This document shows, in pieces, positions 1 to 62,241 of a DNA stretch of 62,293 bases. Below the pieces are notes generated by a model. That model was not told the origin of the DNA and made no database searches. It saw nothing but the letters and a program-made list of their open reading frames with translations. A program made the position numbers and the translations under genes. Origin of the DNA: Nitrospirota bacterium (lineage in GTDB: Bacteria > NPL-UPA2 > JAADIA01); contig JAADIA010000049.1 of NCBI GenBank assembly GCA_013151555.1, forward strand, positions 1 to 62,293, read 5' to 3'. Position 1 is the stretch's first letter, and every line of letters begins with the position of its first letter.

Positions 1-11
1 TGGGAGGTGTA

Positions 12-429
12 ATGATGGAAGGGCCTTATGGCGAGAAAGTAATGGAACATTTTAAAAATCCCCGGAATGTGGGCGAGATGGAAAATCCGGATGGTGTCGG
101 CCATGTCGGGAATCCGATATGTGGAGATATCATGGAACTTTATATCAAGGTCGAGGGGATGAAGATCGTTGATGCTAAGTTCAAAACCTTCGGCTGTGGC
201 GCGGCTATTGCCACCAGCAGCATGGTCACGGAACTTGTGAAAGGAAAAACCATTGATGATGCTTTAAAGATTTCTAACCGGGCCGTGGCCGAGGCTGGGC
301 GGTCTTCCTCCTATCAAGATGCACTGCTCCGTCTTAGCCGAACAGGCTCTGAGGTCGGCCATAGATAATTACCTGAAGAAGTCCAAAGGGGAAGAGACAA
401 AATCTGAAACCGGGGAGGGTACAGATTAA
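12..429 (+). pseudogene. iscU: IscU/NifU-N-type Fe-S cluster scaffold, reading frame broken near nt 294-296
   Basis: ORF 12..368 gives MEHFKNPRNVG, GNPICGD and FKTFGCGAAIA, which carry two of the three scaffold Cys. The conserved LGGLPPIKMHCSVLAEQALRSAIDNYLKK segment with the third Cys lies in the +1 frame (295..429, TAA at 427-429). GGAGGTG RBS at 3-9. Confidence 0.75.
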
Positions 430-452
430 GTCAATTAAAAATGCAAAATTAA

Positions 453-526
453 GACAGGATTTACAGGATTAAACCGGATAGAGATGAGGGAATAAGAAAA
501 ATTTAAAAAATCCAGTTAATCCTGGC
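453..526. repeat. Family A palindromic element, copy A1
   Basis: Left arm gacaggatttacaggattaaaccggat; right arm atccagttaatcctg. Confidence 0.75.
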
Positions 527-594
527 AAAAGAAGAGATTTAACCTTGCTTGATTTTGTCTGGGTAAATCAGGATCAATAAACAGGAGAAATGAT

Positions 595-1305
595 ATGATA
601 TCTCAAGAGATGTTGCAAAAAAAAGCGGAAGAACTGGAGTCGGGTAGTGCGGAGGAAATTTTAAAATGGGCTTTAACGGAATATGGAGATAAGGTAGCCC
701 TGGCCTGTAGTTTTGGAGCGGAGGATATGGTGCTCATCGATATGATGGTTAAGATAGACCCGCAAGCGCATATCTTCACTCTGGATACGGGAAGGCTTCC
801 CCAGGAAACTTACGAAGTAATGGAGAGGGTGAGAGAAAAATATGGGGCGAAGATCGCCGTCTTCTTTCCCGATACCAAGTCGGTCGAGGAAATGGAAGAG
901 AAACATGGCCCTAATCTTTTCTATAAGAGTCTGGAGTTAAGAAAATTATGTTGCACCGTTCGCAAGCTTGATCCTTTGAAGAGAGCATTTGCGGCCCTTT
1001 CTGCCTGGGTCTGCGGTCTGAGGAAAGAACAAGCGGTTACGCGTACCGGGATAAAGAAGGTAGAGATTGGCGCAGACCCTAACGCCATAGTCAAGATAAA
1101 TCCTTTAGCCGACTGGACGGAAAAACAGGTCTGGGATTATATTAAGAAGAATGATGTTCCCTATAATAAGTTACATGACCTCAACTTTCCCAGTATCGGT
1201 TGCTTGCCCTGTACCCGGGCGGTAACTCCCGGAGAGGATGTAAGAGCGGGACGCTGGTGGTGGGAAAGTCCGGAGCAGAAAGAGTGTGGATTGCATAAAA
1301 AGTAG
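595..1305 (+). CDS. cysH: Assimilatory adenylylsulfate (APS) reductase, Fe-S cluster CysH type
   Basis: PAPS/APS reductase fold. Cys-Cys pair (KLCCTVRK) plus CLPC (CxxC) and C-terminal catalytic ECGLH. AGGAGA RBS before ATG 595. Confidence 0.9.
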   Translation: MISQEMLQKKAEELESGSAEEILKWALTEYGDKVALACSFGAEDMVLIDMMVKIDPQAHIFTLDTGRLPQETYEVMERVREKYGAKIAVFFPDTKSVEEMEEKHGPNLFYKSLELRKLCCTVRKLDPLKRAFAALSAWVCGLRKEQAVTRTGIKKVEIGADPNAIVKINPLADWTEKQVWDYIKKNDVPYNKLHDLNFPSIGCLPCTRAVTPGEDVRAGRWWWESPEQKECGLHKK

Positions 1306-1395
1306 TTGAAGGTTGAAAGTATAAAGTTGAAAGTAAAAACGCTTTTTAGAGCTTTAAACCTTAAACCTTAAACCTTAAACTTTAAACTTTCAACT
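1306..1395. repeat. Family B heptamer array, copy B1 (inverted blocks)
   Basis: Five units of TTGAARG-type, a spacer, then six units of CYTTMAA-type. The arms are roughly three-quarters complementary by eye. Confidence 0.85.
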
Positions 1396-1407
1396 ATATT
1401 GGAGGTT

Positions 1408-2583
1408 ATGGTGAAAGACCAAATTGAACCCCATGGGGGTAAGTTGATAAATCGGGTGGTTGAAGAACGGGAGAGAGAATCGCTCATTGAGAAAGCTTTC
1501 AATCTCCGAGAAGTTCATCTTAGCAAGAGAGAGGTCTCTGACTTAGAGATGATCGCTACCGGGGCCTTTTCTCCCCTGACAGGGTTTATGGGAAGGGAAG
1601 ATTACGAGAGCGTTCTGGATGTGAAGAGATTGTCCAACGGCCTTGTCTGGACTATCCCCGTTACCCTTTCGGTAAAGGAGGAAGAAGCGAAGAAATTAAA
1701 GGTCGGGGAGGAGCTGTCTCTTCTGGACCCGGCCGGGACAACTCTGGCCATCCTTCATCTTGAAGAGATCTACCCGCATGATAAGGAAAAAGAAGCCCTT
1801 CAGATTTACGGTACCAGGGATAGAAAGCATCCGGGAGTAGATAAAGTTTACCTGATGGGGGAAGTCTTACTGGGAGGGAAAGTTACCGTTATCCGTCTGC
1901 CCAAACATGATGATTTTTCCCCTTACCGGCTTCCGCCCCGGGAGACGAGGAAATTATTTAAGGAAAAGGGCTGGAAAAGAGTTGCTGCTTTTCAAACCAG
2001 AAATCCTATCCATCGAGCGCACGAATATATTCAAAAATGTGCCCTGGAAATAGTGGATGGACTTTTTCTTCATCCCCTGGTAGGGGAGACAAAAGGCAGC
2101 GATATCCCCGCTGATATTCGCATAAAGAGCTATGAAGTCGTCCTGGAGAAATATTATCCTAAAGACAGGTTTATCATGGCCGTTCTCCCCATGGCTATGA
2201 GGTATGCGGGCCCCCGGGAGGCCATCCTCCATGCTCTCGTCCGGAAGAATTACGGAGCTACCCATTTTATCGTGGGAAGAGACCATGCCGGGGCGGGAAA
2301 TTTCTACGGGCCTTTCGATGCTCACTATATCTTTGACGAATTTGAACCGGAGGAATTAGGGATAACTCCCCTGTTCTTCGATAATGCTTTCTTCTGCAAA
2401 CAATGTCAGGGGATGGCTTCTTATAAGACCTGCCCGCATGAGTCCAGCGAACATATCTCTCTCAGCGGGACAAAAGTTCGGAGTCTCCTCCGCAAAAAAC
2501 AGCAACCTCCCGTGGAGCTTACTCGACCGGAGGTGGCTCAGGTATTGATTGAGGGAGCCTCCAGACCGGACTATCAAATATGA
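1408..2583 (+). CDS. sat: Sulfate adenylyltransferase (ATP sulfurylase)
   Basis: QTRNPIHRAHE and GRDHAG motifs, N-terminal PHGG. The ORF track starts at TTG 1399, but GGAGG at 1401-1405 favours ATG 1408 or GTG 1411. Confidence 0.9.
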   Translation: MVKDQIEPHGGKLINRVVEERERESLIEKAFNLREVHLSKREVSDLEMIATGAFSPLTGFMGREDYESVLDVKRLSNGLVWTIPVTLSVKEEEAKKLKVGEELSLLDPAGTTLAILHLEEIYPHDKEKEALQIYGTRDRKHPGVDKVYLMGEVLLGGKVTVIRLPKHDDFSPYRLPPRETRKLFKEKGWKRVAAFQTRNPIHRAHEYIQKCALEIVDGLFLHPLVGETKGSDIPADIRIKSYEVVLEKYYPKDRFIMAVLPMAMRYAGPREAILHALVRKNYGATHFIVGRDHAGAGNFYGPFDAHYIFDEFEPEELGITPLFFDNAFFCKQCQGMASYKTCPHESSEHISLSGTKVRSLLRKKQQPPVELTRPEVAQVLIEGASRPDYQI

Positions 2584-2584
2584 A

Positions 2585-2710
2585 ATCACGCGGTTCTTTT
2601 GCCGCCTGGCTGCGTTACACGCTGCGCTCCCTTGTGCGGCGTACAGAATATGTACGCCTCCGCAGTCGCTTGCGCAAGCCTTGCCAGACCGTCAAAACTC
2701 CTCGCGTGAG
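2585..2710. repeat. GC-rich imperfect palindrome of about 125 bp (single copy in this window)
   Basis: Outer atcacgcg / cgcgtgag, centre ggcgtac-agaatat-gtacgcc, with further partially complementary GC-rich segments. Confidence 0.7.
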
Positions 2711-2761
2711 ATAAGCTAATTACGCCGGCATTCTACAAAGTGTCGGTCCGGGATATGAACA

Positions 2762-3169
2762 ATGCCAATGAAGATAAAGCAATCCTGTTTCTCGGAGATG
2801 GTCGAACATTGTCAGCAGGAACATCCTCATGAAGCCTGCGGGATCCTGGCTGGTAAGGATGACCTGGTAACAAAAGTTTATAAGATGGCTAATACTTCCG
2901 AGACGCCGGAAATCTGTTATTCTATCGACACTAAAGTGTTGATTAAGCTCAATAAGGAAATGAGAAATTCCGGGCTGGAGATGCTGGGGATCTACCATTC
3001 CCATGGGTCCAGTGCTCCTTACCCTTCCGTCCGGGATGTAAAGGATGCGCACTATCCGGAAGCGAGCTATGTTATCGTTTCCTTAACCAATTGCTGCAAA
3101 CCGGAAGTGGCTGCGTTTAAAATCGTAGAGGGAAAGATAGAAGAGGAAGAGTTGATCCTGGACAATTGA
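2762..3169 (+). CDS. Stand-alone JAMM/MPN+ metalloprotease (Mec/HcyD/QbsD-like sulfur-carrier C-terminal peptidase)
   Basis: HSH-x7-S-x2-D in YHSHGSSAPYPSVRD with upstream E-x-x-CG. 135 aa, single domain. Confidence 0.85.
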   Translation: MPMKIKQSCFSEMVEHCQQEHPHEACGILAGKDDLVTKVYKMANTSETPEICYSIDTKVLIKLNKEMRNSGLEMLGIYHSHGSSAPYPSVRDVKDAHYPEASYVIVSLTNCCKPEVAAFKIVEGKIEEEELILDN

Positions 3170-3175
3170 AAAAAT

Positions 3176-3253
3176 AAACCACAAGATTTCACGAGATTAA
3201 CATAAAAAAATAATACAATTTTAAGAATAATCTGGTGTTAATCTGTGGTTAAA
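3176..3253. repeat. Family F palindromic element, copy F1
   Basis: aaaccacaagatttcacgagattaac ... aataatctggtgttaatctgtggttaaa. Confidence 0.85.
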
Positions 3254-3318
3254 TTCGTTGGTATTAGAAGGTTTCTCTATGGTAAAGTTTAATATATTCC
3301 ATATGGGGGAGGATAATC

Positions 3319-3651
3319 ATGGTTAAGGAAATCAATGATAATAATTTTCAAGCGGAAGTTTTAGAAGCGGATTTGCCGGTGCTGGTAGATTTCTGGGCTT
3401 CCTGGTGTGGCCCCTGCAAAAGGCTTGCTCCCCTTATAGAGGAGATAGCCGGGGAATACAGCGGGCGCCTGAAAGTTTGCAAACTTAACGTGGATGATAA
3501 TCCGGCAACGTCCCCGAAGTATGAAATTATGAGCATTCCTACTTTAATCATCTTCAAAGGGGGCGATGCCAAGGAACGGATTGTCGGACTGGTGCCGAAG
3601 TCCGCCCTGGAGGCGAAGATAAAACCGTATCTGAAAAACATAAAAACTTGA
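3319..3651 (+). CDS. trxA: Thioredoxin
   Basis: WCGPC active site, 110 aa, GGGAGG RBS. Confidence 0.95.
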   Translation: MVKEINDNNFQAEVLEADLPVLVDFWASWCGPCKRLAPLIEEIAGEYSGRLKVCKLNVDDNPATSPKYEIMSIPTLIIFKGGDAKERIVGLVPKSALEAKIKPYLKNIKT

Positions 3652-3729
3652 CAGGATTTACACGATAAACGGGATAAAAATAGGGAAAAATTAATATAAT
3701 TAAAAAATAAAAATCCTGTTCATCCTGTC
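3650..3729. repeat. Family A element, copy A2
   Basis: gacaggatttacacgataaacggga ... aaatcctgttcatcctgtc. The trxA TGA stop overlaps its first bases. Confidence 0.8.
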
Positions 3730-3782
3730 AAAAGAAGGAAGCGCTTTTAAGAATACCTGATCCTGTCGAAGGAGTAAAAAAA

Positions 3783-5108
3783 TTGCAATCAAACTCCCAA
3801 CTCTTTTCCCAGGCCCGGAAACACATCCCCGGCGGGGTGAATAGTCCCGTGCGAGCTTTTCAGGCCGTAGGGGGGACCCCGCTCTTTATAGATCGGGCAA
3901 AAGGGTCTAAGCTCTACAGTGCCGAGGGGAAAGAATATCTGGATTACTGTCTTTCCTGGGGAGCTTTAATTCTGGGACATAGTTGTCCCGGCGTCATCGT
4001 CGAAGTAAAGAAAGCCCTGGAGAAAGGAACCAGCTTTGGCGCTCCCACCCGGATGGAAACGGAGTTAGCCCGGAAGGCTTGTGAGGCGGTTCCCTCAATG
4101 GAACTGGTGCGGCTGGTGAACTCGGGAACGGAAGCCGTAATGAGCGCCATAAGAGTTGCCCGGGGCTATACCGGGAGAAATAAAATCATCAAATTCGCCG
4201 GCTCTTACCATGGTCATGCCGATTATCTTCTCGTGGAAGCCGGTTCCGGAGCCATGACGCTAAACGTAGGAACTGGAGATGCCGCCGGAGGGAGGGAAAG
4301 TCAATCTTTGCCGTCCAGTCTGGGGGTGCCGGAAGATTTTACCAAACATACTTTCGTTCTCCCCTACAATAATCTGAAAGCGGTAGAAGAAACCGTCAAG
4401 AAACACGCTGCCGATATCGCCTGTATAATCGTGGAACCTGTTTCCGGGAACATGGGAGTCATCCCTCCGCAGGAAGGTTTCCTGGAAGGTTTGCGCCGGA
4501 CTTGTGACCGGCATGATGTCATCTTAATATTTGATGAAGTAATTACCGGGTTCCGCCTTGCCTACGGCGGAGCCCAGGAACTCTTTTCTCTCAAGGCGGA
4601 TTTAACCTGCCTGGGCAAGATAATGGGAGGGGGGTTCCCTCTGGCGGCCTATGGAGGCAGGAAAGACATCATGGAATGTGTGTCTCCTTTGGGTAACGTC
4701 TATCAGGCGGGAACTCTTTCCGGGAATCCGGTAGCTACCACAGCCGGGCTGGCAACGTTAAATTTGTTATCTTCCCAGAAGGAAGAGTTATATAAATCGC
4801 TGGCAGAGAAGGCTGGTTATCTATATGCCGAAATAAAAAAAGAGGCTGAGAAGTCAGGGGTCGAGATGCAAATTCATCGGGTGGGTTCTATGCTTTCCCT
4901 GTTTTTCACTTCCCGCCCGGTCAGCGATTATGAGACGGCCAAGGCAACGGATACCGTAGCTTACCGCAAATTCTTTCATAAGATGTTGGAGGAAGGGGTT
5001 TACCTTCCTCCCTCCAATTTCGAATCTTACTTTCTCTCCTCTTCCCATAGCGGGGAGGATGTAGAGAAGACGATCCGGGCCGTTGGGGCAGCTATGAAAA
5101 AGATATGA
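3783..5108 (+). CDS. hemL: Glutamate-1-semialdehyde 2,1-aminomutase
   Basis: N-terminal IPGGVNSPVRAF, class III aminotransferase core, GKIMGGGFP Lys region. TTG start with GAAGGAG RBS. Confidence 0.9.
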   Translation: MQSNSQLFSQARKHIPGGVNSPVRAFQAVGGTPLFIDRAKGSKLYSAEGKEYLDYCLSWGALILGHSCPGVIVEVKKALEKGTSFGAPTRMETELARKACEAVPSMELVRLVNSGTEAVMSAIRVARGYTGRNKIIKFAGSYHGHADYLLVEAGSGAMTLNVGTGDAAGGRESQSLPSSLGVPEDFTKHTFVLPYNNLKAVEETVKKHAADIACIIVEPVSGNMGVIPPQEGFLEGLRRTCDRHDVILIFDEVITGFRLAYGGAQELFSLKADLTCLGKIMGGGFPLAAYGGRKDIMECVSPLGNVYQAGTLSGNPVATTAGLATLNLLSSQKEELYKSLAEKAGYLYAEIKKEAEKSGVEMQIHRVGSMLSLFFTSRPVSDYETAKATDTVAYRKFFHKMLEEGVYLPPSNFESYFLSSSHSGEDVEKTIRAVGAAMKKI

Positions 5109-5156
5109 GTCGCGAGTTATCAGAACTAATCACTATTGAAGGCAGGAGGAAAAAAC

Positions 5157-5369
5157 ATGAACCTTGTTATTAATGGGAAGAAGAAAGAATTGGAGGAAGG
5201 AACGACTGTCGGCCGGCTTCTGAAAATAAAAAAAGTCCGGCCCGAGGTAGTAACAGTGGAATTAAATGATCAAATAATTGAGAGAGAGAAATATGGAGAC
5301 ACGATCCTTAAAGAGGGAGACAGGTTGGAGCTGGTCTATTATATGGGAGGGGGAGTTGGTTTAGTTTAA
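5157..5369 (+). CDS. ThiS/CysO-like ubiquitin-fold sulfur carrier with residues beyond the Gly-Gly
   Basis: 70 aa from ATG 5157 (AGGAGGA RBS). Ends ...LELVYYMGGG-VGLV. The tail and the TAA stop lie in the first units of the downstream heptamer array. Confidence 0.75.
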   Translation: MNLVINGKKKELEEGTTVGRLLKIKKVRPEVVTVELNDQIIEREKYGDTILKEGDRLELVYYMGGGVGLV

Positions 5370-5466
5370 AGTTAAAAGTTTAAGGTCTAAAGTTAAAAGT
5401 TTAAGGTTTAAGGTTTAAAGTTGAAGGTTGAGGGTTAGGAATTGCAAAAAGACTTTAGACTTTATG
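5357..5466. repeat. Family B heptamer array, copy B2
   Basis: About 11 tandem GTTWAAR heptamers (5364-5439), then gactttagacttta as a short opposing arm. Confidence 0.85.
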
Positions 5467-5488
5467 TTTTCGGATCAAGGGAGAGATT

Positions 5489-6418
5489 ATGATGCAGTCA
5501 AAGGTGGTTAACAATGTATTGGAACTTATCGGCAATACCCCGTTGGTGAAGATGAACAAAATCGGAGAAGAAAATATGGCCGAAGTTCTGGCCAAGTTAG
5601 AAAGTTTTAATCCCGGAGGGAGCGTTAAGGATAGAATCTGCCTGAATATGATTGAGGATGCCGAGAAGAGAGGCCTTCTCAAGCCGGGGGCGATTGTTGT
5701 GGAGCCTACCTCGGGCAATACGGGAATCGGGTTGGCCATGGTGGCGGCTGTCAAGGGCTATAAATGTATTCTTACCATGCCCGAGACGATGAGCGTTGAG
5801 CGTCGTTATATCCTGGAATCCTATGGGGCCGAGATTGTGCTCACCCCGGGCATTGAAGGGATGATGGGAGCGGTAAAGAAGGCCGAGGAGATAGTCCGGA
5901 ATACTCCTAATTCTTTCTTGCCTCAGCAGTTCAAAAATCCAGCTAACCCGGACGTACACCGTCGGACTACCGCGGCAGAAATATTAGCTGCCACGGAAGG
6001 AAAGTTAGAAGCTTTCGTGGCTGGGGTGGGTACCGGAGGGACGATTACCGGCGTAGGCGAAATACTTAAAAAAGAGATTCCTTCCGTGAAAATCATCGCC
6101 GTCGAGCCGGAAACCTCCCCGGTTCTTTCCGGAGGCGAACCCGGGCCCCATAAGATTCAAGGGATAGGGGCAGGGTTCATTCCCGAAGTGCTTAACCGCA
6201 AGATAATTGATGAGATGATTCCGGTAAGTGATGACGATGCTTTTCATACTACCAAGCGGCTGGCCCGGGAAGAAGGAATCTTCGCAGGAATATCATCAGG
6301 AGCGGCTGTCTTTGCCGCCCTCAAAGTGGCTAAGGATTTAGGTAAAGAAAAGAGAGTTGTCGTTATTCTTCCCGATACCGGGGAGAGATACTTTAGTATG
6401 GAACAATACTTTGAATAG
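5489..6418 (+). CDS. cysK: Cysteine synthase (O-acetylserine or O-phosphoserine sulfhydrylase, CysK/CysM family)
   Basis: PLP fold type II: SVKDR lysine motif, [18 protein letters not shown]. CysK versus CysM cannot be resolved by eye. Confidence 0.9.
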
Positions 6419-6433
6419 AGATAATTTAAAAAG

Positions 6434-6513
6434 CAGAATTAAGGATTAAGTGGTAAGAATTAAGCAAAAACATTTAATTCTTAGAACGAAGTGAGCATCT
6501 TAATCATTAACCC
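6434..6513. repeat. Family E (GGATTAA heptamer) element, copy E1
   Basis: cagaattaaggattaagtggtaagaattaagc ... ttagaacgaagtgagcatcttaatcattaaccc. Confidence 0.85.
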
Positions 6514-6585
6514 TACATCGTTAAATCTCCGCGTCTCTGTGGTTAAGTGTGTTGTAGTACTACCGTAAAAATAAGGAGAGTCTTG

Positions 6586-7449
6586 ATGGCTGAGCACGAT
6601 CTTAATGCGTTGAAAAGCTCGGGATTTATGACCCAGAAGGAGAAAGACCTCTTCTCGGTGAGACTGCGGATTGCCGGTGGGTATATCAAGGCTGAGCAGT
6701 TGCCTAAGTTGGCAGAAATATCCAAGAAGTTTGGGCGGGGGCATCTTCACCTGACGACCAGGCAAGGGATAGAGATTCCTTATGTTCACTTCGATAATCT
6801 GGAGAAGGTGAGAAATGAATTGGCCGAAGTAGGTTTAAAAATAGGAGCTTGTGGTCCCCGGGTGCGGACAGTAACGGCTTGTCAGGGAGAAGCTTGTTCT
6901 CACGGTCTTATTGAAGCTCAGCATCTGGGAAAAAAAATAGACGAGATTTTCTTCGGCCGGTCCGGTATCCCGCACAAGTTTAAGATCTGCGTCACCGGTT
7001 GTCCCAATGCCTGTATCAAGCCGGTGGAGAATGACTTCGGGATAATGGGAGTGGTCAGGAAGATTTTCGTCAAGGAAAAGTGTAACTATTGCCGGTTATG
7101 CCAGGAGGTCTGTCCGGTGGGAGCTATCAAGGTGGAAGAGAACGAACTTCACTATGATCCTTCCAAGTGTATCTTCTGCGGCGACTGTATCTTTGCCTGT
7201 CCCTCCTATGCCTGGGAACAGGAGAAGGTAGGATACAAAATCTTCGTGGGCGGAAAGATGGGCAAGTTCCCTGATCTTGGCCGGGAAGTTTTCAGTTTCT
7301 GGGAGGGAGAAGAAAGACTTTTCCAACTTATCGAAAAGACCCTGGATTTCTATAAGGAAGCAGGGAAAAAGGGAGAGAGGTTCGGAGGAACCATCGGTCG
7401 GATTGGGCTGGATAATTATAAAGAGAAGATGGAGGCGGCTATCGCATGA
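6586..7449 (+). CDS. Small sulfite/nitrite reductase-like protein with inserted 2x[4Fe-4S] ferredoxin domain (AsrC/Dsr-LP-like)
   Basis: Nitrite/sulfite reductase ferredoxin-like half-domain (LRIAGG...[11 protein letters not shown]). Cys clusters TACQGEAC and CVTGCPNAC. Two CxxCxxCxxxCP-type motifs ([24 protein letters not shown]). Likely start ATG 6586 after AAGGAGAG. Confidence 0.7.
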
Positions 7450-8642
7450 TAAAGATCTATCTTGACCAGGCAGCGGCAACTCTCCCTCTGCCGGAAGTGG
7501 TAGAGGAGATGATTCCTTACCTGAGGGAGAAGTTCGGTAACCCTTCCAGCCTCCACGAGGTCGGACAGGTGGCCAGAAAGGCAGTGGAAGAAGCCCGGGC
7601 TCGGGTAGCCGGACTGATCAAAGCCGACCCGGAAGAGATCTTCTTCACCTCCGGAGGGACAGAGTCCAACAATTTTGCTTTGAAGAGTATGGCCTTTGCT
7701 CATCAGGATAAAGGGAAGCATATCGTTACCTCGGTCATTGAGCACCATTCCATAATTCATTCGGCTAAGGCCTTAGAGAAATTAGGATTTGAAGTAACTT
7801 ATCTCCCGGTAGACAAATTTGGTTTTGTTGACCCCCGGGCGGTAAAGGGAGCCTTGCGGGAAGGGGAGACGATCCTCGTTTCCATCATGCATGCTAATAA
7901 TGAGGTAGGAACGATCGAGCCCATAGCGGAAATCGGCCGGGTGATAAAAGAATATAACGAAAATTTGGCCTCGAAATCCGGGCGGCGAATTTACTTTCAT
8001 ACCGATGCCGTCTCCACAGTGGGGACAATTCCCGTGGATGTTAAGGAGTTGGGAGTAGACCTTTTGAGTTTGGCGGCTTGCCAGTTCTATGGTCCTAAAG
8101 GAGCGGGAGCTCTCTTTGTTAAAAAGGGAGTCCGGATTATACCTTTCCTCCACGGAGGCATTCAAGAGGGGGGAAGGCGGGCCGGAACGGAGAATGTCGC
8201 CGGAATCGTCGGTTTGGGGAAGGCTGCGGAGATAGTCTCCCGAGAAATGGGTTCCTGGAACGAACGGATAACCGGTCTGAGGGACCGCTTGATAAACGGC
8301 TTGCAGGAAAAGATAGACCATCTTTACCTGAATGGTCATCCCACTAAAAGGCTTCCCGGAAACGTGAATGTCTGTGTAGAGTTTATAGAGGGAGAATCCA
8401 TGCTCCTTTATCTGGGTATGGAAGGGATTGCTGTTGCCAGCGGTTCGTCCTGCACCTCCCACGCCTTGAAAGCTTCCCATGTCCTTGTAGCTTTAGGGGT
8501 GGACCCGGCCTTAGCTCAAGGTTCGCTCCTCTTCAGCTTGGGGAAAGACAACAGTGAGGAAGACATCGATTGTGTCCTGGAGGAAATGCCTCCGATAGTC
8601 AACCGTCTGAGGCAGATGTCACCGCTTTATAAAAAACCGTAA
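7446..8642 (+). CDS. iscS: Class I cysteine desulfurase (NifS/IscS)
   Basis: [15 protein letters not shown], active-site loop ASGSSCTSH. The start overlaps the upstream stop (ATGA at 7446-7449). Confidence 0.9.
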
Positions 8643-8785
8643 CCACGGATAAACTAACTAAAAAGGTAAAGCACAAAATTAAAAGAGATGAAACCCCGAG
8701 ATTATCCAAGATTTACACGAGAGAAGAGAGAACAAGAACAAATTTAGAGATTACTAAGAAAAATCTTGTAATAATCCCTGCCCTC
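8641..8785. repeat. Family F-like element, copy F3 (degenerate)
   Basis: aaccacggataaac ... ccgagattatccaagatttacacgag ... aaatcttgtaataatcc. Confidence 0.55.
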
Positions 8786-8832
8786 CTCAGGAGGGTGGAT
8801 AACCTGTATCTGCAACTTATCACGGTGAGATT

Positions 8833-9084
8833 ATGGAAGAGATAAAAGTAGACGAGACTTTAGATTGTTTTGGCCTTATCTGCCCGGTGCCGGTGCATCT
8901 CACGGCCAAAAAGATAAAGCAATTTCAGGTAGGGCAAGTCCTGGTAGTGATTGCCGACGACCCCGACTCTCTGCAGGACATACCTGCCTGGTGCAAGTCC
9001 AGTGGGCATAAGCTCCTCCGGTTCGAACCGGAAGGAAATATCTATAAATTTTACATCAGGAAAGAAGCCGAGCAGAATAAATAG
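8833..9084 (+). CDS. TusA/SirA-like sulfurtransferase
   Basis: 83 aa, LDCFGLICPVP (CPxP motif). Confidence 0.8.
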   Translation: MEEIKVDETLDCFGLICPVPVHLTAKKIKQFQVGQVLVVIADDPDSLQDIPAWCKSSGHKLLRFEPEGNIYKFYIRKEAEQNK

Positions 9085-9188
9085 GGCGGAGAAGAAGAGC
9101 AAGGGAAGCAGGAGGGTGGATTTAAGTTGATATTATTCCCGTCTCCAGATATAATAAGGGAAGTTAAGGCAGAAAAAAAGGGTTAACC

Positions 9189-9425
9189 ATGAGCGAAATG
9201 AAAGCGGATGAAAAGTTAGATTTAAGGGGAGAGATTTGCCCCTATAACTTTGTGAAAACGAAGCTCAAACTGGAAGAGATGGAGATAGGACAGATATTGG
9301 AAGTGGTTATTGATAATGGGGAACCGATAAAGAATGTTCCCCGCAGCCTGAAAGAAGATGGACATCAAATTCTTAAAGTGGAGAGAATTGAGCAGTATTT
9401 CAAGTTGGTGATAAAGAAGAGTTAA
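9189..9425 (+). CDS. TusA/SirA-like protein, variant motif
   Basis: 78 aa, LDLRGEICPYNF: the Cys-Pro is kept and the second Pro is lost. The stop lies in heptamer array B3. Confidence 0.7.
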   Translation: MSEMKADEKLDLRGEICPYNFVKTKLKLEEMEIGQILEVVIDNGEPIKNVPRSLKEDGHQILKVERIEQYFKLVIKKS

Positions 9426-9451
9426 AAGTTTAAGGTTTAAAGTTTAAAGTA
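9421..9451. repeat. Family B heptamer array, copy B3
   Basis: gttaaaa gtttaag gtttaaa gtttaaa gt. Confidence 0.8.
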
Positions 9452-9458
9452 AGATGGG

Positions 9459-10706
9459 GTGATGAAAGTGTCTTATGTGAAAGGTTTGAAATGTCGGGAG
9501 TGTGGACGGCACTATCCTAAGGAAGCCCTCTATGTCTGTGAATACTGTTTTGGCTCCCTGGAAGTTGATTACGACTACGCTCGCATCAAGAAAAAACTCA
9601 CTCGAAAAGAATTGACCTCCCGCCCGCAGAACCTCTGGCGTTATAGAGAGCTCCTCCCTCTTGATAAAGCGCCAACCGATGGGATGGGTTCGGGATTTAC
9701 CCCTTTGATAAAAGCCGATAACCTGGCCCGGGAATTGGGAGTCAGGGAACTTTATATAAAAGACGATTCGGTTAACCATCCTACCCTCTCTTTCAAGGAC
9801 CGGGTAGTAGCTGTAGCTCTCTCCAAAGCCAAAGAGTTTGGCTTCGATACGGTAGCCTGTGCTTCAACCGGAAACCTGGGTAATTCAGTATCCGCCCAGG
9901 CAGCAAAGGCAAATCTTGAACGCTATATCTTCATTCCTGCGGATTTAGAGATGGGCAAAGTAATCGGCTCGCTTATCTATGCTCCGAACCTCATCGCTGT
10001 GGAAGGAAACTATGATGAAGTAAACCGTCTCTGTGCCGAGATTGCCTTCAGATACAAATGGGCTTTCGTGAACATCAATATCAGGCCTTACTATGCCGAA
10101 GGGTCAAAGACTTATGCCTATGAAATAGCGGAGCAGTTCGGGTGGCGGGCTCCGGACCATATCGTTGTTCCCTCTGCCGGGGGTTCTCTGATTACGAAAG
10201 TCTGGAAGGGTCTCAACGAACTCTATAAAATCGGCTTAATCGATGATAAACCGCGGACCAAAGTTTATTGTGCCCAGGCAGAAGGATGTGCTCCTATAGT
10301 CACGGCCATCAAGGAGAATAGCGAAGTAATCAAACCGGTAAAACCGCAGACTATCGCTAAATCTCTGGCCATCGGCAACCCCGCTGATGGCTACTATGCC
10401 GTGAACACTGTCCAGACAAGCGGCGGTTGGGGAGAGGAAGCCGACAATGAGGAAATTGTGGAAGGAATGAAACTCCTGGCGCGAACGGAAGGAATCTTCA
10501 CCGAGACTGCCGGAGGGGTAACGGTGGCCGTAACTAAAAAATTGATTGCCCAGGGCCGGATTCCCCGGGACGAATCTATAGTGATTGCCATAACCGGAAA
10601 CGGTCTCAAGACTCAGGAAGCAATCTCCGAGCATATCGGGAGATTTACCAAGATAAAACCGACCCTGGCTTCTTTTGAGAAAAAAGTAAAAGCTCGCCGG
10701 CGTTAG
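9459..10706 (+). CDS. Threonine synthase-family PLP enzyme with N-terminal zinc ribbon (ThrC or MetM-like)
   Basis: CRECG...CEYC ribbon, SFKDR PLP-lysine motif, ASTGN. Start ambiguous (GTG 9459, ATG 9462 or GTG 9468). Confidence 0.8.
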   Translation: MMKVSYVKGLKCRECGRHYPKEALYVCEYCFGSLEVDYDYARIKKKLTRKELTSRPQNLWRYRELLPLDKAPTDGMGSGFTPLIKADNLARELGVRELYIKDDSVNHPTLSFKDRVVAVALSKAKEFGFDTVACASTGNLGNSVSAQAAKANLERYIFIPADLEMGKVIGSLIYAPNLIAVEGNYDEVNRLCAEIAFRYKWAFVNINIRPYYAEGSKTYAYEIAEQFGWRAPDHIVVPSAGGSLITKVWKGLNELYKIGLIDDKPRTKVYCAQAEGCAPIVTAIKENSEVIKPVKPQTIAKSLAIGNPADGYYAVNTVQTSGGWGEEADNEEIVEGMKLLARTEGIFTETAGGVTVAVTKKLIAQGRIPRDESIVIAITGNGLKTQEAISEHIGRFTKIKPTLASFEKKVKARRR

Positions 10707-10730
10707 AATAAGGAACTGAATGAAAAAACA

Positions 10731-10819
10731 GACAGGATTAACAAGATATACCGGATGGTTTTAAAAACAAAACTTTACAAAAAATTTTTAGACATCCGGT
10801 TAATCCCGTAAATCCTGTC
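10731..10819. repeat. Family A element, copy A3
   Basis: gacaggattaacaagatataccggatgg ... gacatccggttaatcccgtaaatcctgtc. The first 21 nt are identical to A4. Confidence 0.85.
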
Positions 10820-10848
10820 AGATTTTCTTTTTTCAAGGAGGGACCAAG

Positions 10849-11130
10849 ATGCCCATCAAAGTGAAGATACCCACGCCTTTACAGAAATTGACTAAGAATC
10901 AGGCTGAGGTGGAGAGTGAAGGGAAGACTGTCCAGGAGTTAATTGATGACCTGGAAAAGAATTATCCCGGGATCAAGGAAAGAATCTGCGATGAAAAAGG
11001 AAAAGTACGCCGGTTCATAAATATCTATGTGAACGAAGAAGATGTGAGGTTCTTGAAGGGGGATGATACTCCCGTAAAAGATGGAGATGAGATATCCATT
11101 ATCCCGGCTATTGCAGGAGGAGCAAGTTAG
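10849..11130 (+). CDS. MoaD/ThiS-family sulfur carrier ending GG-AS
   Basis: 93 aa. C-terminus ...[23 protein letters not shown]. Confidence 0.8.
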
Positions 11131-11236
11131 CCCTCACTTCGTTCAGGGCTAACTTAATTGCAAATTGAAGATTGGAAATTGAAAATTTTAAAATAAAAAA
11201 AGTTTCTTTGAAAAGCATCTTTTTTTAATTTTCGAC
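11127..11236. repeat. Family G element (hairpin plus AAATTGA heptamers), copy G1
   Basis: ttagccc-tcacttcgttca-gggctaa hairpin holding the carrier gene's TAG stop, then aattgca aattgaa gattgga aattgaa aatttta. Confidence 0.8.
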
Positions 11237-11256
11237 TATATAAGTGAGGTTGTAAG

Positions 11257-12060
11257 ATGTCCGATTTTACCGATGAGCAGGTTAAAAGATACAGCCGGCA
11301 GATAATTCTGCCTCAGGTAGGAGGGAAAGGACAGAGGAAACTGTTCGAGGCCAAAGTTCTTATCATTGGAGCCGGAGGTTTGGGTTCGCCCGCCTCCCTT
11401 TACTTAGCCGCAGCGGGGGTAGGCCATCTTGGCATAGTTGATAGCGATGAGGTAGAGGTAAGCAATTTGCAACGGCAGATATTACACTCTACCCGCGACG
11501 TCGGCAGACCGAAAACGAGCTCGGCTAAAGATAGATTAACGAACCTCAATCCTGATGTGGAAGTAATTGTTCATGAGGTGCGTGTTACCTCGGAGAACAT
11601 TCTGAATATAATTAAAGATTACGATATCGTCATTGACGGCAGCGATAATTTCCCTACCCGTTATTTGGTAAACGATGCCTGTGTTATATCCAGGAAACCT
11701 TTATCTCACGGAGGAATATTTCGCTTTGACGGCCAGGCAATAACCATCATTCCGGGCAAAGGTCCCTGCTACCGCTGTCTTTTCCCCGAACCCCCTCCCC
11801 GGGGATTGGTTCCCAGTTGCCAGGAAGCAGGAATTCTGGGAGCAGTAGCGGGAGTCATCGGTCTCATTCAAGCCAATGAAGTATTAAAATTTATCCTGGA
11901 CATAGGGGAACTGTTGGTGGGGAAACTTCTTATTTTCAACGCTCTGGAATCCAGCTTCCGACAGGTTGCCGTCCCCAAGGATAAAAATTGTCCCGTCTGC
12001 GGAGATAATCCTACCATAACTGAGTTGATCGATTACGAAGAATTTTGTTCACTTCGGTGA
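11257..12060 (+). CDS. MoeB/ThiF/HesA-family E1-like adenylyltransferase without a rhodanese domain
   Basis: RYSRQI, GAGGLGSP nucleotide loop, two CxxC pairs (CYRC, CPVC). 267 aa. Confidence 0.85.
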   Translation: MSDFTDEQVKRYSRQIILPQVGGKGQRKLFEAKVLIIGAGGLGSPASLYLAAAGVGHLGIVDSDEVEVSNLQRQILHSTRDVGRPKTSSAKDRLTNLNPDVEVIVHEVRVTSENILNIIKDYDIVIDGSDNFPTRYLVNDACVISRKPLSHGGIFRFDGQAITIIPGKGPCYRCLFPEPPPRGLVPSCQEAGILGAVAGVIGLIQANEVLKFILDIGELLVGKLLIFNALESSFRQVAVPKDKNCPVCGDNPTITELIDYEEFCSLR

Positions 12061-12068
12061 GGATAAAA

Positions 12069-12206
12069 AACCTAACCGCAGAGATACGGAGGACACGGAG
12101 AAACCTCTGAAAAAATTTGTAACTATAGATTATCACAAGATTAACAATTAAAAAAAGAATTAGATTAAATCTTTTTCTGGGTAAATCTCGTGAAATCTTG
12201 TGGTTT
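12069..12206. repeat. Family F element, copy F2
   Basis: The right arm aatctcgtgaaatcttgtggttt (12184-12206) is the exact reverse complement of the F1 left arm (3176-3198, 23 nt). The left part is aaccgcagagatacggaggacacggag. Confidence 0.85.
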
Positions 12207-12272
12207 ATATTTTATCCTCAAGGTTTTTCTCGGTGAGTTCTGTGGTGAAAATAAATAGTGGAGGTAAAGAAA

Positions 12273-12512
12273 ATGGCTAAACAAATGGTCAAATTGACTT
12301 TTCCCCAGGAGTTGATTAAAGAACCGGTTACCTTTAAAATGGCCAAGAAATATGACATCATCCCCAATATCCGCCGAGCCCGGGTCAGTGAGACCGTAGG
12401 GGAAATCGTTCTGGAACTGGAAGGGAAGAAAGAGAATCTGGACAAAGGGATCAAATATTTAGAGAAGCGTAATGTCAAAGTCGAACCGATAGTAGGAGAC
12501 ATCGTAGAATAA
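12273..12512 (+). CDS. Stand-alone NIL-domain protein
   Basis: 79 aa from ATG 12273 (GGAGGT RBS). Resembles the MetN C-terminal NIL domain (VKLTFP...EPV...NI..A.V...GEIVLELEG). Confidence 0.6.
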   Translation: MAKQMVKLTFPQELIKEPVTFKMAKKYDIIPNIRRARVSETVGEIVLELEGKKENLDKGIKYLEKRNVKVEPIVGDIVE

Positions 12513-12543
12513 GAAAATAAACCCGCCTATCTTCCCCTAATGA

Positions 12544-12631
12544 GCACACAATTTACGGAACGTAAATTGTATGTGCGAATTATCCCGATAGTTGCAAGAA
12601 AATTTAGTGTAAATTTTCGAGCGCTTTTGCT
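12544..12631. terminator. Two adjacent hairpins between convergent genes (no U-tract)
   Basis: gcacacaatttacg-gaa-cgtaaattgtatgtgc (12544-12576) and ttatcccgatag...ctatcgggataa (12579-12631). They lie between the NIL gene (+) and the CgeB-like gene (-). Confidence 0.45.
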
Positions 12632-12676
12632 ATCGGGATAAGCCCAGGGTGTAGCCTGTTTTAAGAGGCTCTTGCT

Positions 12677-13639
12677 TCAACTTTTCAGCAGTTCCGAAAG
12701 GATGCCAAGCATCTTTTCCATACTTTGCTGCCAGGTATAATGAGCATAAACATGTTTCTGCCCGGCCGCGGCAATCCGTTTTCGTTCTTCCGGCTTCTCC
12801 CGGTAATAGTCAAGGAGTTGGAGACATTCACGGTAACGGTTTTTCCATCCCTTCCCGAGAGGAAACCAGACCAGATGTTCTCTGTCGGTGAACCATTTTT
12901 CTAATCCGGGGACATAAGAAGTCAGATGAAATCCCCGGCAGGCCAGGGTGAGAAAGGTGCGGTCGGAGAAATAATCCGGGATAGTCTGTTTGTCATTGAG
13001 ACCAAGGACGATTTCGGCACCCGAACAGACCCGGGCAAAATTCTCGCTGTCCCGGAGTTCCCCTTGATAAGGAAGGTCGTCCGGCCAGGAGGGAGAGCCC
13101 CATATCTTTACCTGGAAGCCTCGCTTCTTTACCTGTCTCAGGAGTTGTTCCCGGCCGGCTTTGTTCGTCCCGACAAAAGCTACTTCGCATCGATAGAGAG
13201 AAGAGTCAGATTCTATATAGCGATGAACTTCGGGATCACATCCTTCCCAGAGGTGATGGACGTTGTTGAATCCCAGGCGCCGATACTTATCTCTTAACCC
13301 TCCGGCGGTAACAAAGAAGGAATCTGCTTCCCGTCCCAGACGCACTAACCATCTCGGGATAGGCGAATCCATATAGCGCAGGGAAGCATGGCAGGTTTTC
13401 CGGATTTCCAGAAGGGTAGCGGGAGAGATGCCTTCTCCTTTTACCAGGAGGAAAACGTCCGGCTTTTCCTGCCGGACGGTATCAATCATCCGTGCCTGCA
13501 TCTTCTCGTTCCCAAGCTCCCGGCGTTCCCGGCGGTAATCGAAAGGGACGACTTTTTGGCCAAGTCCCTCCAGAGCTTTCTTCATAAAAACTACTGTTGA
13601 TGAGGATTTCTCTAAAGAACCGGACAGGATGATTTTCAT
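12677..13639 (-). CDS. CgeB-family / DUF3880-type glycosyltransferase-like protein
   Basis: 320 aa. Pattern resembles spore-maturation CgeB/YkvP GT1-like proteins. Its start overlaps the stop of the upstream GT4 gene (ATGA). Confidence 0.55.
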   Translation of the reverse strand: MKIILSGSLEKSSSTVVFMKKALEGLGQKVVPFDYRRERRELGNEKMQARMIDTVRQEKPDVFLLVKGEGISPATLLEIRKTCHASLRYMDSPIPRWLVRLGREADSFFVTAGGLRDKYRRLGFNNVHHLWEGCDPEVHRYIESDSSLYRCEVAFVGTNKAGREQLLRQVKKRGFQVKIWGSPSWPDDLPYQGELRDSENFARVCSGAEIVLGLNDKQTIPDYFSDRTFLTLACRGFHLTSYVPGLEKWFTDREHLVWFPLGKGWKNRYRECLQLLDYYREKPEERKRIAAAGQKHVYAHYTWQQSMEKMLGILSELLKS

Positions 13640-18256: not shown

Positions 18257-18363
18257 TACCGGTGCGAGTTATTTGTTTCGTAACACGTCGTATCAGATAT
18301 TTTATCCTAACTAACTCTTTTGGTCAATTGGTCAATAAAAAGTAGCCTGTCCCCTTTATTTGA

Positions 18364-22281: not shown

Positions 22282-22301
22282 TGTCTGCCTTTTCAACTCA
22301 G

Positions 22302-22386
22302 AAAACAGATGACAGATGACAGAAGTCAAATATCAGAAGGCGGGGTTGTTCTGTCCTCTGTCCTCTGTTTTCTGTTTTCCGTCTTG
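22302..22386. repeat. Family D heptamer hairpin, copy D1
   Basis: aaaacagatgacagatgacag (22302-22322) pairs with ctgtcctctgtcctctgtttt (22351-22371): 21 bp with 2 mismatches. Units are CAGATGA / CTGTCCT. Confidence 0.9.
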
Positions 22387-23127
22387 TTGCCTTTCCCACA
22401 ACTTCACATACTTAACGAATACATAGAAAGCCTGGAGAATACTGTAAAGAAGACCATGAAATCCATCCCGGAAACCTTGTCTGATAAAGTAGATCAGGAT
22501 AAATTCGCTTGGTAAGCGCAGGAAAGGATACCATCTTCCATACCGCCGCTTCCCGGCTTTATCCAGAGCATCGAGAGTACTATAACGGTTGAACTTTTGC
22601 AGATAATCATCGAGGTTTTTATAGCTGTAATGGAGCATAGGATACCGGAGATAACCTACCCGGCCCTCAACCTTAACTCCCTCATGCACTGCTATCTCTT
22701 CGAACTTCCCTTTTCCCTTCTTAAAGAGCCGGAGATGAGGCTTGGGGTAAAGACCGCCGTGTCTCATCCAGCGACCGAAGAAGAAGAACTTCATAGGGAT
22801 AAGATATCCGTCCTCATTGCCGTTTCCCCGCAGTACTTCCTTTATCTCCTTAATCAATTCTGGAGAAATTCTCTCATCGGCATCCAAACTCAAGATCCAT
22901 TCTCCGGCAGCTTCTTCTATGGCAAAATTCTTCTTCTCGGCATACCCTTCATACTTCGTCTTAAAGACTTTGCTTCCATACTTTCGGCAGATCTCTACGG
23001 TTCTATCATCGCTGAAAGAATCGATAACGATAATTTCATCGGCCCATTTTACGCTCTCCAAGCAGGGACCGATATCTTCCTCTTCGTTCTTGGTGATAAT
23101 CACGACAGATAAACGATTATTTTTCAT
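22333..23127 (-). CDS. Glycosyltransferase family 2, WaaE/KdtX-like LPS core transferase
   Basis: LSVVIITKNEE...IIVIDSFSDDRT...LDADE. The last ~18 codons (QQDGKQKTEDRGQNNPAF) are encoded by repeat D1. Confidence 0.75.
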   Translation of the reverse strand: MKNNRLSVVIITKNEEEDIGPCLESVKWADEIIVIDSFSDDRTVEICRKYGSKVFKTKYEGYAEKKNFAIEEAAGEWILSLDADERISPELIKEIKEVLRGNGNEDGYLIPMKFFFFGRWMRHGGLYPKPHLRLFKKGKGKFEEIAVHEGVKVEGRVGYLRYPMLHYSYKNLDDYLQKFNRYSTLDALDKAGKRRYGRWYPFLRLPSEFILIYFIRQGFRDGFHGLLYSILQAFYVFVKYVKLWERQQDGKQKTEDRGQNNPAF

Positions 23128-23170
23128 CTAAAAATCCCAAGTCGGTTATTAGTTATAAATTAACGTTTTT

Positions 23171-23219
23171 TCAACCTTAAACCTTAAACCTTCAACCTTC
23201 AACTTTAGACCTTGAACGA
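23171..23219. repeat. Family B heptamer array, copy B5 (opposite orientation)
   Basis: tcaacct taaacct taaacct tcaacct tcaactt tagacct tgaacga. Contains the stop of the LpxL-like gene. Confidence 0.85.
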
Positions 23220-25254: not shown

Positions 25255-25361
25255 GACAGGATTAACAAGATATACAGGATAGTTTTCTCGAAGAATCTAC
25301 CCCTAAGTGGAAATTTTTTGTAAACTTTTTAGAAAATCCAGTTAATCCGGTGAATCCTGTC
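25255..25361. repeat. Family A element, copy A4
   Basis: gacaggattaacaagatatacaggatag ... aaaatccagttaatccggtgaatcctgtc. Confidence 0.85.

Positions 25362-62167: not shown

Positions 62168-62241
<74 letters not shown>

Follow-up and report, generated by a model that had tools for sequence, protein, structure and literature searches.

Among the described systems closest to the intergenic elements reported here, which occupy the gene junctions of a Nitrospirota bacterium (contig JAADIA010000049.1 of assembly GCA_013151555.1; 62,293 nucleotides), are miniature inverted-repeat transposable elements (MITEs), such as the Correia elements of Neisseria and Nezha of cyanobacteria. The cyanobacterial STRR sequences are tandem heptamer repeats, and the foldback (FB) transposons of Drosophila possess long inverted repeats made of variable-number tandem sub-repeats, in which the loop is mostly small or missing and codes for protein in few copies. 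Two reports (PMC3333891, PMC8266576) present repetitive extragenic palindromic (REP) sequences and bacterial interspersed mosaic elements (BIMEs) as high-density extragenic palindromic repeats, often located between co-transcribed genes, that affect mRNA stability. The intervening sequence of the Coxiella 23S rRNA, which has been called selfish, possesses a 28-bp terminal-repeat stem, an S23p open reading frame (ORF) in its loop and, next to this ORF, tandem GACAGAT heptamers in a strain-dependent number, and it is excised by RNase III (PMC4990558). TAACTGA repeats are found in Beggiatoaceae, Cyanobacteria and Bacteroidetes, an identical unit in distant phyla for which no transfer mechanism is known (PMC4679880).

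The whole 62-kb stretch, hereafter the window, was analysed. Its operon array (region 12-12,512, about 12.3 kb) comprised 16 genes, all on the + strand, belonging to a sulfate-assimilation and sulfur-carrier module. The original prediction, made from the letters of this DNA, held that each gap of the array carried a different hairpin or tandem element. Twelve of the 15 spacers were occupied, and the elements were found at the gaps to which they had been assigned (A1 to F2, and hairpins after the NIL gene), but they belonged to recurring families (A, B, E, F and G), a grouping backed by an all-against-all BLAST of the spacers. The post-NIL hairpins are located in an additional, convergent gap, outside the 15 array junctions. 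The operon gaps, in common with other spacers throughout this genome, have probably been colonised by foldback elements that lack an ORF and resemble MITEs; these would belong to a diverse population, the full-length forms of which carry one small gene.

Dispersal of tandem-unit foldback elements

With the exception of a GC-rich palindrome and of the post-NIL hairpins, the elements shared one design, consisting of an arm of 2-10 tandem 7-10-nt units, an AT-rich loop and a reverse-complement arm. The A arms were made of three ~9-nt ACAGGAT units and the F arms of variants of this unit (ACAAGAT, ACGAGAT), with GTTTAAG/GTTGAAA heptamers forming the B arms, (G/A)ATTAAG units the E arms and AATTGAA units the G arms. 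Element-bearing gaps had a GC content of 26-35%, and their arms, 18-34 nt of tandem 7-10-nt units, possessed no common head. The start of most elements was only a few bases from the upstream stop codon, which some overlapped, and direct reading indicated that the Shine-Dalgarno sequence of each downstream gene was left intact.

Overall, 24 tandem arrays (period 7-11 nt, at least 2.5 copies) were found in the window, all at gene junctions. Such arrays numbered 0-3 in five shuffled windows and 0 in 50 kb of Escherichia coli K-12; the elements were in excess over chance. Counting elements per intergenic region, a check that had been proposed with the prediction, was done within the window and showed that the families cross-matched and were dispersed, high-copy and extragenic. 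The unusual density claimed as a feature of the operon was not recovered, with 5 arrays in its 12.3 kb (0.41 per kb) compared to 19 in the other 50 kb (0.38 per kb); by an automatic criterion, 9 of the 15 operon gaps were occupied compared to 11 of 29 elsewhere (Fisher p = 0.21). As the same families occurred throughout the window, they do not constitute an operon-specific device, and the crowded look of the operon results mainly from its short genes. The asymmetric families E and G were found in both orientations relative to transcription.

Turnover in orthologous operons

The same operon, often with gaps of 2-8 nt, was found in five related loci, L001-L003 (Sat 87-90% identical) and L124 and L125 (thrC-like 88-89% identical). 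The iscU/cysH gap, of 226 nt with A1 in the window, measured 2 nt in L002, and the JAMM/trx gap (149 nt, F1) measured 2 nt in L001. At trx/hemL (131 nt, A2), the genes were separated by 3 nt or overlapped in L001-L003, and at cysK/sir (128 nt, E1) the spacer was of 41 nt in L002 and 17 nt in L124, the genes overlapping in L125. Other junctions were occupied by different sequences: at cysH/sat, B1 was present in L001 minus two units, L002 possessed an unrelated AGACTAT/AGTCT hairpin and L003 had 40 nt with nothing, and at iscS/tusA, F3 of the window corresponded to AACTGGA heptamers in L124 and to a B-type hairpin in L125. A3, at thrC/moaD, was present in L125, with other elements in L124. The G1 of moaD/E1 was near-identical in L124, and a gene-bearing four-helix-bundle cassette stood at this junction in L125. 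The number of units also changed at tusA2/thrC, where B3 had about 4 units in the window, 2 in L124 and 4 in L125.

As gaps were empty or filled by another family in relatives, turnover of the elements was fast; a minority of elements was inherited and most were lineage-specific. A conserved design is disfavoured by the 2-8 nt spacers at several of the same junctions, and by the other families or the gene-bearing cassette found there, in relatives whose proteins are 87-90% identical. The A3 of the window has fewer base pairs than its L125 counterpart, and the losses are uncompensated, unit 2 showing ACAAGAT facing ATCCCGT in the window and ACAGGAT facing ATCCTGT in L125. Exact look-up of four window proteins (two Sat starts, thioredoxin and MoaD-like) failed to recover a second assembly of this population. 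Reproduction in independent assemblies was therefore assessed with the 87-90% relatives, in which B1, B3, A3 and G1 were recovered, and this recurrence shows that they are not assembly artefacts.

Arms shared among phyla and gene-bearing cassettes

An A-arm pattern with 19 specified bases, GACAGGATTNACANGAT-N4-6-GGAT, was built from the four window copies and scanned over species-representative genomes. It was present in at least 120 loci, in at least eight bacterial phyla and in archaea. Among the matches listed, to which the descriptions of hosts, copies and flanking genes in this paragraph apply, bacterial hosts belonged to Verrucomicrobiota, Kiritimatiellota, Acidobacteriota, Chloroflexota, Bacteroidota, Desulfobacterota, Planctomycetota, Gemmatimonadota, Gammaproteobacteria and Nitrospirota, and archaeal hosts to Methanoperedens and Methanosarcinales; complete chromosomes and the isolate Thioalkalivibrio denitrificans were included. 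Most copies were hairpins with the same arms and unrelated loops, and the short complete A hairpins (n = 42) had a median length of 73 nt. The genes flanking A-type hairpins were convergent in 11 cases, co-directional in 13 and divergent in 4.

In four A-arm loci among the matches listed, a GxxExxY gene (125 aa; TIGR04256, PF13366) was located exactly between the left and right A arms, and in a fifth (L073) complete A-type hairpins flanked such a gene. In an independent sample, the 120 best homologues of one of these proteins, 67 C-terminal tails proved to be ACAGGAT arrays in translation, and 45 of these were NPVNPV-type tails. Three further GxxExxY genes, whose frames ended before any arm, were all bracketed by A-type inverted arrays, and each occupied a spacer between co-directional housekeeping genes. 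The predicted model of the protein (predicted local distance difference test, pLDDT, of 93.5) had as nearest solved folds Cas4, lambda exonuclease and the similar-sized Holliday-junction resolvase Hjc. Residues D66, E76 and K78 were invariant and the D...ExK motif was intact. According to this model, GxxExxY is a minimal PD-(D/E)XK nuclease fold.

The cassette found at the moaD/E1 junction of L125 possessed another gene, encoding a four-helix bundle (TIGR02436, PF05635), between inverted TAGTCCA/TGGTCCA and TGGACTA/TGGACCA heptamer arrays. Across 80 thrC-like loci, all five four-helix-bundle genes (L125, L151, L159, L174 and L183) were bracketed by inverted tandem arrays, with a unit that differed each time. 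These arrays were read directly in the flanks, and alignment-based scans scored four of them strongly and L174 weakly. In L151, the cassette (GTTGATA/GTTTATG units) was located directly upstream of the thrC-like gene. As a control, among 355 other small ORFs of the same loci, a single flanking inverted repeat scored at least 17 and none scored at least 20.

The A arm was also found in 57 viral contigs, and in these 57 viral loci no GxxExxY or four-helix-bundle gene was detected beside it at E <= 1e-4. Searches by sequence and by family names, with subscription journals outside their coverage, found no paper containing the element sequences or describing these cassettes.

In a Lewinellaceae locus (L048, ~5400-5700), A-type arms were located inside a larger ~98-nt tandem repeat (GTTGAAAGTA-GACAGGATTGACAGGATTAACAGGAT-...), so that units of the B-like and A-like kinds can form part of a single higher-order repeat in Bacteroidota. 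In L028, L089, L094 and others, A-type hairpins were flanked by arrays of the short units CTCCGTG, CTTTGTG and CTTCGTGCC. As these arrays resemble the CGGAG- and AGGCACAG-type units of the window, several unit families, beyond ACAGGAT, may be common to distant phyla.

Structure and folding of the individual elements

The gene order was as originally described, and every assignment was backed by Pfam. On the + strand, the array encoded NifU_N (iscU; 12-368), PAPS reductase (cysH; 595-1305), ATP-sulfurylase (sat; 1399-2583), Prok-JAB (JAMM; 2762-3169), thioredoxin (trx; 3319-3651), a class-III aminotransferase (hemL; 3783-5108), ThiS (5136-5369), PALP (cysK; 5489-6418), NIR_SIR (sir; 6547-7449), a class-V aminotransferase (iscS; 7446-8642), two TusA proteins (tusA, 8833-9084; tusA2, 9189-9425), a second PALP (thrC-like; 9459-10706), ThiS/MoaD (moaD-like; 10849-11130), ThiF (the E1 gene; 11257-12060) and NIL (12258-12512).

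The folding energy of each whole gap was compared with that of dinucleotide shuffles (fold z). A clear excess over shuffles was found for A1, B1, the GC-rich palindrome, F1, A2, A3, F2 and the post-NIL hairpins (z from -2.0 to -5.5), and B2, E1, F3 and G1 were weak hairpins (z from -1.0 to -1.5).

Among A-type elements, A1 (453-526, iscU/cysH gap; z -2.8) possessed a left arm GACAGGATTTACAGGATTAAACCGGAT at 453-479, an AT-rich loop and a right arm AATCCAGTTAATCCTGGC at 509-526. In A2 (3650-3767, trx/hemL gap; z -2.0), the arms were located at 3650-3675 and 3712-3729, with an extra GATCCTGTC unit at 3759-3767, and the first base of the left arm was shared with the trx stop codon (3649-3651). A3 (10731-10819, thrC-like/moaD-like gap; z -5.0) was the best A-type hairpin, with 34-nt arms that were 79% complementary.

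B1 (1305-1394, cysH/sat gap; z -3.0) began directly 3' of the cysH TAG stop codon, its arms opposing GTTGAAA/G heptamers to CTTTAAA/CCTTAAA in an inverted repeat (32 nt, 81%). B2 (5359-5465, ThiS/cysK gap; z -1.4) consisted of ~9-10 heptamers (GTTTAAG/GTTAAAA/GTTGAAG) and a short inverted AGACTTT x2, the array overlapping the ThiS stop codon. B3 (9421-9450, + strand, tusA2/thrC-like gap) was a tandem array only, made of GTTTAAG/GTTTAAA heptamers (4.4 copies), and it also overlapped the stop codon.

F1 (3177-3250, JAMM/trx gap; z -2.8) possessed the arms AACCACAAGATTTCACGAGATTAAC and TAATCTGGTGTTAATCTGTGGTT, made of ACNNGAT units that are variants of the A unit. It was a 97% match to the inner arm of F2 in the spacer BLAST. 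F2 (12076-12247, gap between the E1 gene and NIL) was a nested foldback, in which outer arms of CGCAGAGA/ACGGAGGA units (12076-12105 and 12222-12247) enclosed an F-type hairpin (12132-12149 and 12183-12205); this hairpin within the loop of another folded as one long stem (z -3.9 and -4.1 in two calculations). F3 (8697-8795, iscS/tusA gap; z -1.0) possessed degenerate F-type inverted arms at 8697-8722 and 8748-8776, as well as a small GC hairpin CCCTCCTCAGGAGGG at 8781-8795. The E1 element (6434-6511, cysK/sir gap) consisted of (G/A)ATTAAG units, a loop and TTAATTCTTA, with the 12-mer GAACGAAGTGAG inside its right arm, and G1 (11131-11232, gap between moaD-like and the E1 gene) combined a small hairpin, CCCTCACTTCGTTCAGGG, with heptamers of the AATTGAA type and a palindrome that is AT-rich.

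The GC-rich (56%) palindrome, 124 nt long, was located at 2586-2709 in the sat/JAMM gap (2584-2761; z -2.1) and contained an inner perfect hairpin, GGCGTACA-gaata-TGTACGCC. It occupied the place held by a DUF2061 gene (73-79 aa) in three relatives. The possibility that it is a DUF2061 remnant was dropped, as no protein or DNA similarity was found, and no second copy was present in the window or the compared loci. The two hairpins of the convergent gap after NIL (12545-12641; z -5.5) were unique and of another kind than the tandem-unit elements; the transcription unit may end there.

Three junctions were free of elements, namely sir/iscS, where the genes overlap, hemL/ThiS, with an empty gap of 27 nt, and tusA/tusA2, with 104 nt and no repeat. 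The last of these (fold z +1.5) contradicts the claim that only tightly coupled pairs lack an element. It was the only long spacer without one, and it contained the best promoter-like site of the region (TTGATA-17-TATAAT, 9127-9155, + strand; 11/12 sigma-70-like). This spacer, including the promoter-like site, was conserved in L124 and L125.

The C-terminus of ThiS (window 5340-5369) reads ...GGGVGLV* and that of the MoaD-like protein (window 11110-11130) ...AGGAS*, both past the usual Gly-Gly, and the ThiS extension was encoded in part by the B2 heptamer array. Together with the JAMM/Prok-JAB peptidase gene of the operon, these extended tails would fit carriers needing C-terminal trimming.

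Known RNAs and discarded candidates

At gathering score, Rfam 15 gave a tRNA (62168-62241) as the sole match in the whole window, and no rRNA. A permissive Rfam scan of 1-13,000 yielded three sub-threshold microRNA-hairpin matches and nothing relevant. Several other candidates were dropped: CsrA-sponge-like GGA arrays, as the stems hide the GGA motifs and archaea also possess the family; DnaA boxes, with a match of just 5/9; integron attC sites, as the genes belong to core metabolism and no integrase was seen; and -35-like TTGACA motifs at arm ends, which point into the hairpin from both sides and have no -10.

Further repeats in the window

Outside the operon, B-type copies were found at 14,750 and, as direct heptamer arrays, at 23170-23217, 44132-44161 and 46186-46221. 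The fourth complete A-type hairpin was located at 25255-25363 and an A-type half copy at 31,910. An E-type copy carrying a GAACGAAGTGAG insert (40932-41016) shared 85% identity over 86 nt with the E1 element in the spacer BLAST; E-like copies were present at 48663-48728 and 59705-59741, and a G-type copy at 60,441. Hairpins were also formed by ACAGA(G/T)G and GACAGAA heptamers (22300-22390) and by 8-nt AGGCACAG and CCTTTGTG units (27513-27626; z -3.2), and other unit types were found at 26,630-26,710 and 51,202. Nesting was seen a second time at 39255-39460 (z -1.4, weak), where the outer arms were F-like and the inner arms of the CGCAGAGA type.

The exact 12-mer GAACGAAGTGAG occurred three times in the window (6484-6495; 11133-11144, - strand; 40990-41001), with ~0.007 occurrences expected by chance, and was also present in L124 (5635-5646). 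Each of the three window copies was located beside E- or G-type arrays, like a tiny separate insert riding in them.

Another repeat of ~125 nt, containing TGCGGGCACAGGCGGGCACAAG, was present in two copies of opposite orientation 16 kb apart (42114-42234 and 58670-58792; 87% identical). Located in long spacers, it did not belong to the tandem-unit class, had a z of about -2.8 at 42076-42175 and gave no Rfam match at gathering score. Two copies of TTGGTCAA were found at 18320-18336; this unit contains TTGGTCA, which we take to be the cyanobacterial STRR2 heptamer. Finally, the stretches 40414-40930 and 42867-43637 were ORF-poor (no ORF of at least 70 aa under a crude gene model) yet coding-like, one of them adjoining a gene for a 2-oxoacid:ferredoxin oxidoreductase gamma subunit (42291-42866). 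They may be frameshifted genes, or genes missed by the ORF picker.

Explanations considered

The elements of such a population would spread by insertion and survive only where harmless, i.e. just 3' of stop codons and with the next ribosome-binding site intact. Loss of the ORF would leave a bare hairpin, the hairpins deriving from cassettes rather than cassette genes having landed in hairpins. The transcribed stems of 20-35 bp would probably be cut by RNase III, as in 23S intervening sequences, and the apparent punctuation of the mRNA would be a side effect and not a designed system. An effect on mRNA processing or stability is plausible, because stems of this length are transcribed inside the operon, and it would be a by-product of colonisation.

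Several results weigh against this interpretation. Neither a GxxExxY nor a four-helix-bundle gene was found in the 62-kb window, nor remnants of one in its long gaps, so that the link to cassettes rests on other genomes. This link is by arm sequence for A and F, and by architecture and orthologous position only for B, E and G, and neither of the two proteins belongs to the known transposases. Alignments of filled and tight gaps were too diverged for a target-site duplication, or a clean boundary between empty and filled sites, to be defined; the T-runs, A-runs or TA adjoining A arms are part of the palindrome. B1, B3, A3 and G1 stay at the same junction in relatives of 88-90% protein identity, a persistence also expected under weak selection for a function. 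Three elements, the GC-rich palindrome and both hairpins after NIL, fall outside the tandem-unit class. RNase III cleavage is proposed by analogy only, and 42 A-type hairpins oriented by their flanking genes gave no sign of selection at the RNA level, with no excess of G-U relative to A-C mismatches in the sense strand (6 compared to 12, small numbers).

If the hairpins were instead selected as operon punctuation, kept because they give the segments of the polycistronic mRNA different stabilities or processing, as REP/BIME do in E. coli operons, one would understand why they are located between cistrons, right after stop codons and with the downstream Shine-Dalgarno sequence intact, why several gaps fold far better than shuffles, why four elements recur at their junction in one relative or more and why the A-type hairpins of other phyla, among the matches listed, are mostly downstream of genes. 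Such selection is unlikely, as most junctions have 2-8 nt or another family in 87-90% relatives, density and gap occupancy in the operon are comparable to those in the rest of the window, the lost pairing in A3 is uncompensated, and E and G occur in both orientations relative to transcription. Birth in place, through slippage and template switching in a quasi-palindrome derived from an ancestral terminator-like hairpin, with neither mobility nor a cassette link, appears rather improbable. It is in keeping with the very diverse unit sequences and with unit numbers that vary between orthologues (B1 with two more than L001; B3 with 2-4), but the families recur at unrelated loci with their non-repetitive parts included (the E-type loop with GAACGAAGTGAG; the 19-base A pattern), elements are nested, and A arms are common to phyla and bracket one gene family.

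The arrays could also act on DNA, as iteron-like sites for a DNA-binding or nucleoid-associated protein with an incidental hairpin potential; heptad arrays bound by ribbon-helix-helix repressors provide a model. Units recurring at about one helical turn, direct and inverted (7-10 bp), and an ACAGGAT unit conserved across phyla, suggesting recognition by a conserved protein, point in this direction. The many unrelated unit sequences in one genome, the location of sites downstream of stop codons inside operons and not at promoters, and the lack of a candidate binding protein encoded nearby in the window make it very improbable as the sole account, although it is compatible with recognition by the cassette's own nuclease and thus not exclusive of the foldback population. 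Hardly credible is that every element is an efficient terminator and each gene has its own promoter, despite the stable stems after stop codons and the strong promoter-like site in tusA/tusA2. The consensus scan gave 15 terminator-like sites, compared to 17.3 expected from shuffles, and no GC-rich stem followed by a T-run at any gap element on the + strand; a sigma-70-like scan found no promoter-like sites in most gaps, and the operons of relatives are tightly packed, which implies co-transcription. The doubt that the original prediction had itself voiced about efficient terminators was justified, as the elements are not canonical intrinsic terminators.

The foldback population favoured here could extend further. 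It is conceivable, and put forward tentatively, that miniature foldback mobile cassettes exist prokaryote-wide, in which inverted 7-10-nt arrays surround one tiny gene, either the GxxExxY nuclease, possibly acting on the hairpin or cruciform of its own arms, or an Avd-like four-helix bundle. ORF-less derivatives would be far commoner and located in the operon spacers of many phyla, 23S intervening sequences would be the rRNA special case, and RNase III cuts would be imposed on polycistronic mRNAs.

For annotation, the present case calls for caution, as a pattern of one hairpin per gap can be the footprint of selfish repeats and not regulation, which comparison with close relatives settles quickly. 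Two common "hypothetical" families (GxxExxY/PDDEXK_3 and the four-helix-bundle 23S-intervening-sequence protein) are both located within inverted short-unit arrays, in housekeeping spacers of many phyla, and the cassettes with a gene are fewer than the bare hairpins that share their arms. The main interest lies in how the elements connect, across phyla, to cassettes of the GxxExxY and intervening-sequence-like kinds. If mobile, such cassettes would explain where 23S intervening sequences originate and why distant phyla have short tandem units in common, a question raised earlier by the TAACTGA repeats, and would hint at a role for GxxExxY proteins, so far without known function. By analogy with 23S intervening sequences, widespread element-driven RNase III processing of operon transcripts would then be predicted in environmental bacteria.

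Comparison with known systems

The REP/BIME style attributed to the elements by the original prediction held in its broad sense, as these are dispersed extragenic hairpin and tandem repeats of the general REP/MITE kind; like REP/BIME, they are palindromic, dense and located between co-directional genes. REP sequences are GC-rich imperfect palindromes of 20-40 nt with a conserved head, species-specific and associated with a Y1 transposase, whereas the elements of the window are AT-rich, consist of tandem 7-10-nt units and have no GTAG head, and one of their families (A) is common to phyla. No Y1 transposase (REP-associated tyrosine transposase, RAYT) was found among the window ORFs scanned (27 with Pfam, 8 with NCBIfam).

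Compared to tandem heptamer repeats of the STRR/TAACTGA type, which are intergenic arrays of 2-40 heptamers, B2 and B3 are the same kind of array. TAACTGA arrays are almost always direct and located just upstream of start codons, whereas the arrays described here are mostly paired with an inverted copy and start at the upstream stop codon, and their units (GTTTAAG, GTTGAAA, AATTGAA and others) differ from TAACTGA and STRR1-3, the 2-copy TTGGTCAA alone resembling STRR2. The likeness to FB transposons is one of architecture only, as these are eukaryotic, kilobase-sized and unrelated in sequence.

With 23S intervening sequences, the elements share terminal inverted repeats that pair into a stem of 20 bp or more, together with tandem heptamers, and the heptamers of the hairpin at 22,300-22,390 are nearly the GACAGAT unit of Coxiella. 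PF05635 is the protein encoded in the 23S rRNA intervening sequences of Coxiella, Leptospira, Salmonella and others, and the same family is encoded by the cassettes of L125, L151, L159, L174 and L183. In contrast, the elements of the window are located in the spacers of protein-coding operons and not in 23S helix 25 or 45, all copies are ORF-less, and their units are many and varied.

Finally, MITEs differ in that their ends are a unique inverted repeat, whereas the arms described here are built from short units in tandem; a target-site duplication was not found in the gaps compared, whose alignments were too diverged to fix boundaries, and the partner gene encodes a 125-aa protein of predicted PD-(D/E)XK fold and not a known transposase. 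The likeness to MITEs lies in short, non-coding elements with intergenic dispersal and nesting, in terminal inverted repeats around a short non-coding core (A1-A3, B1, F1 and F2), and in the existence of longer, gene-carrying partners with the same ends, represented here by A arms with GxxExxY.

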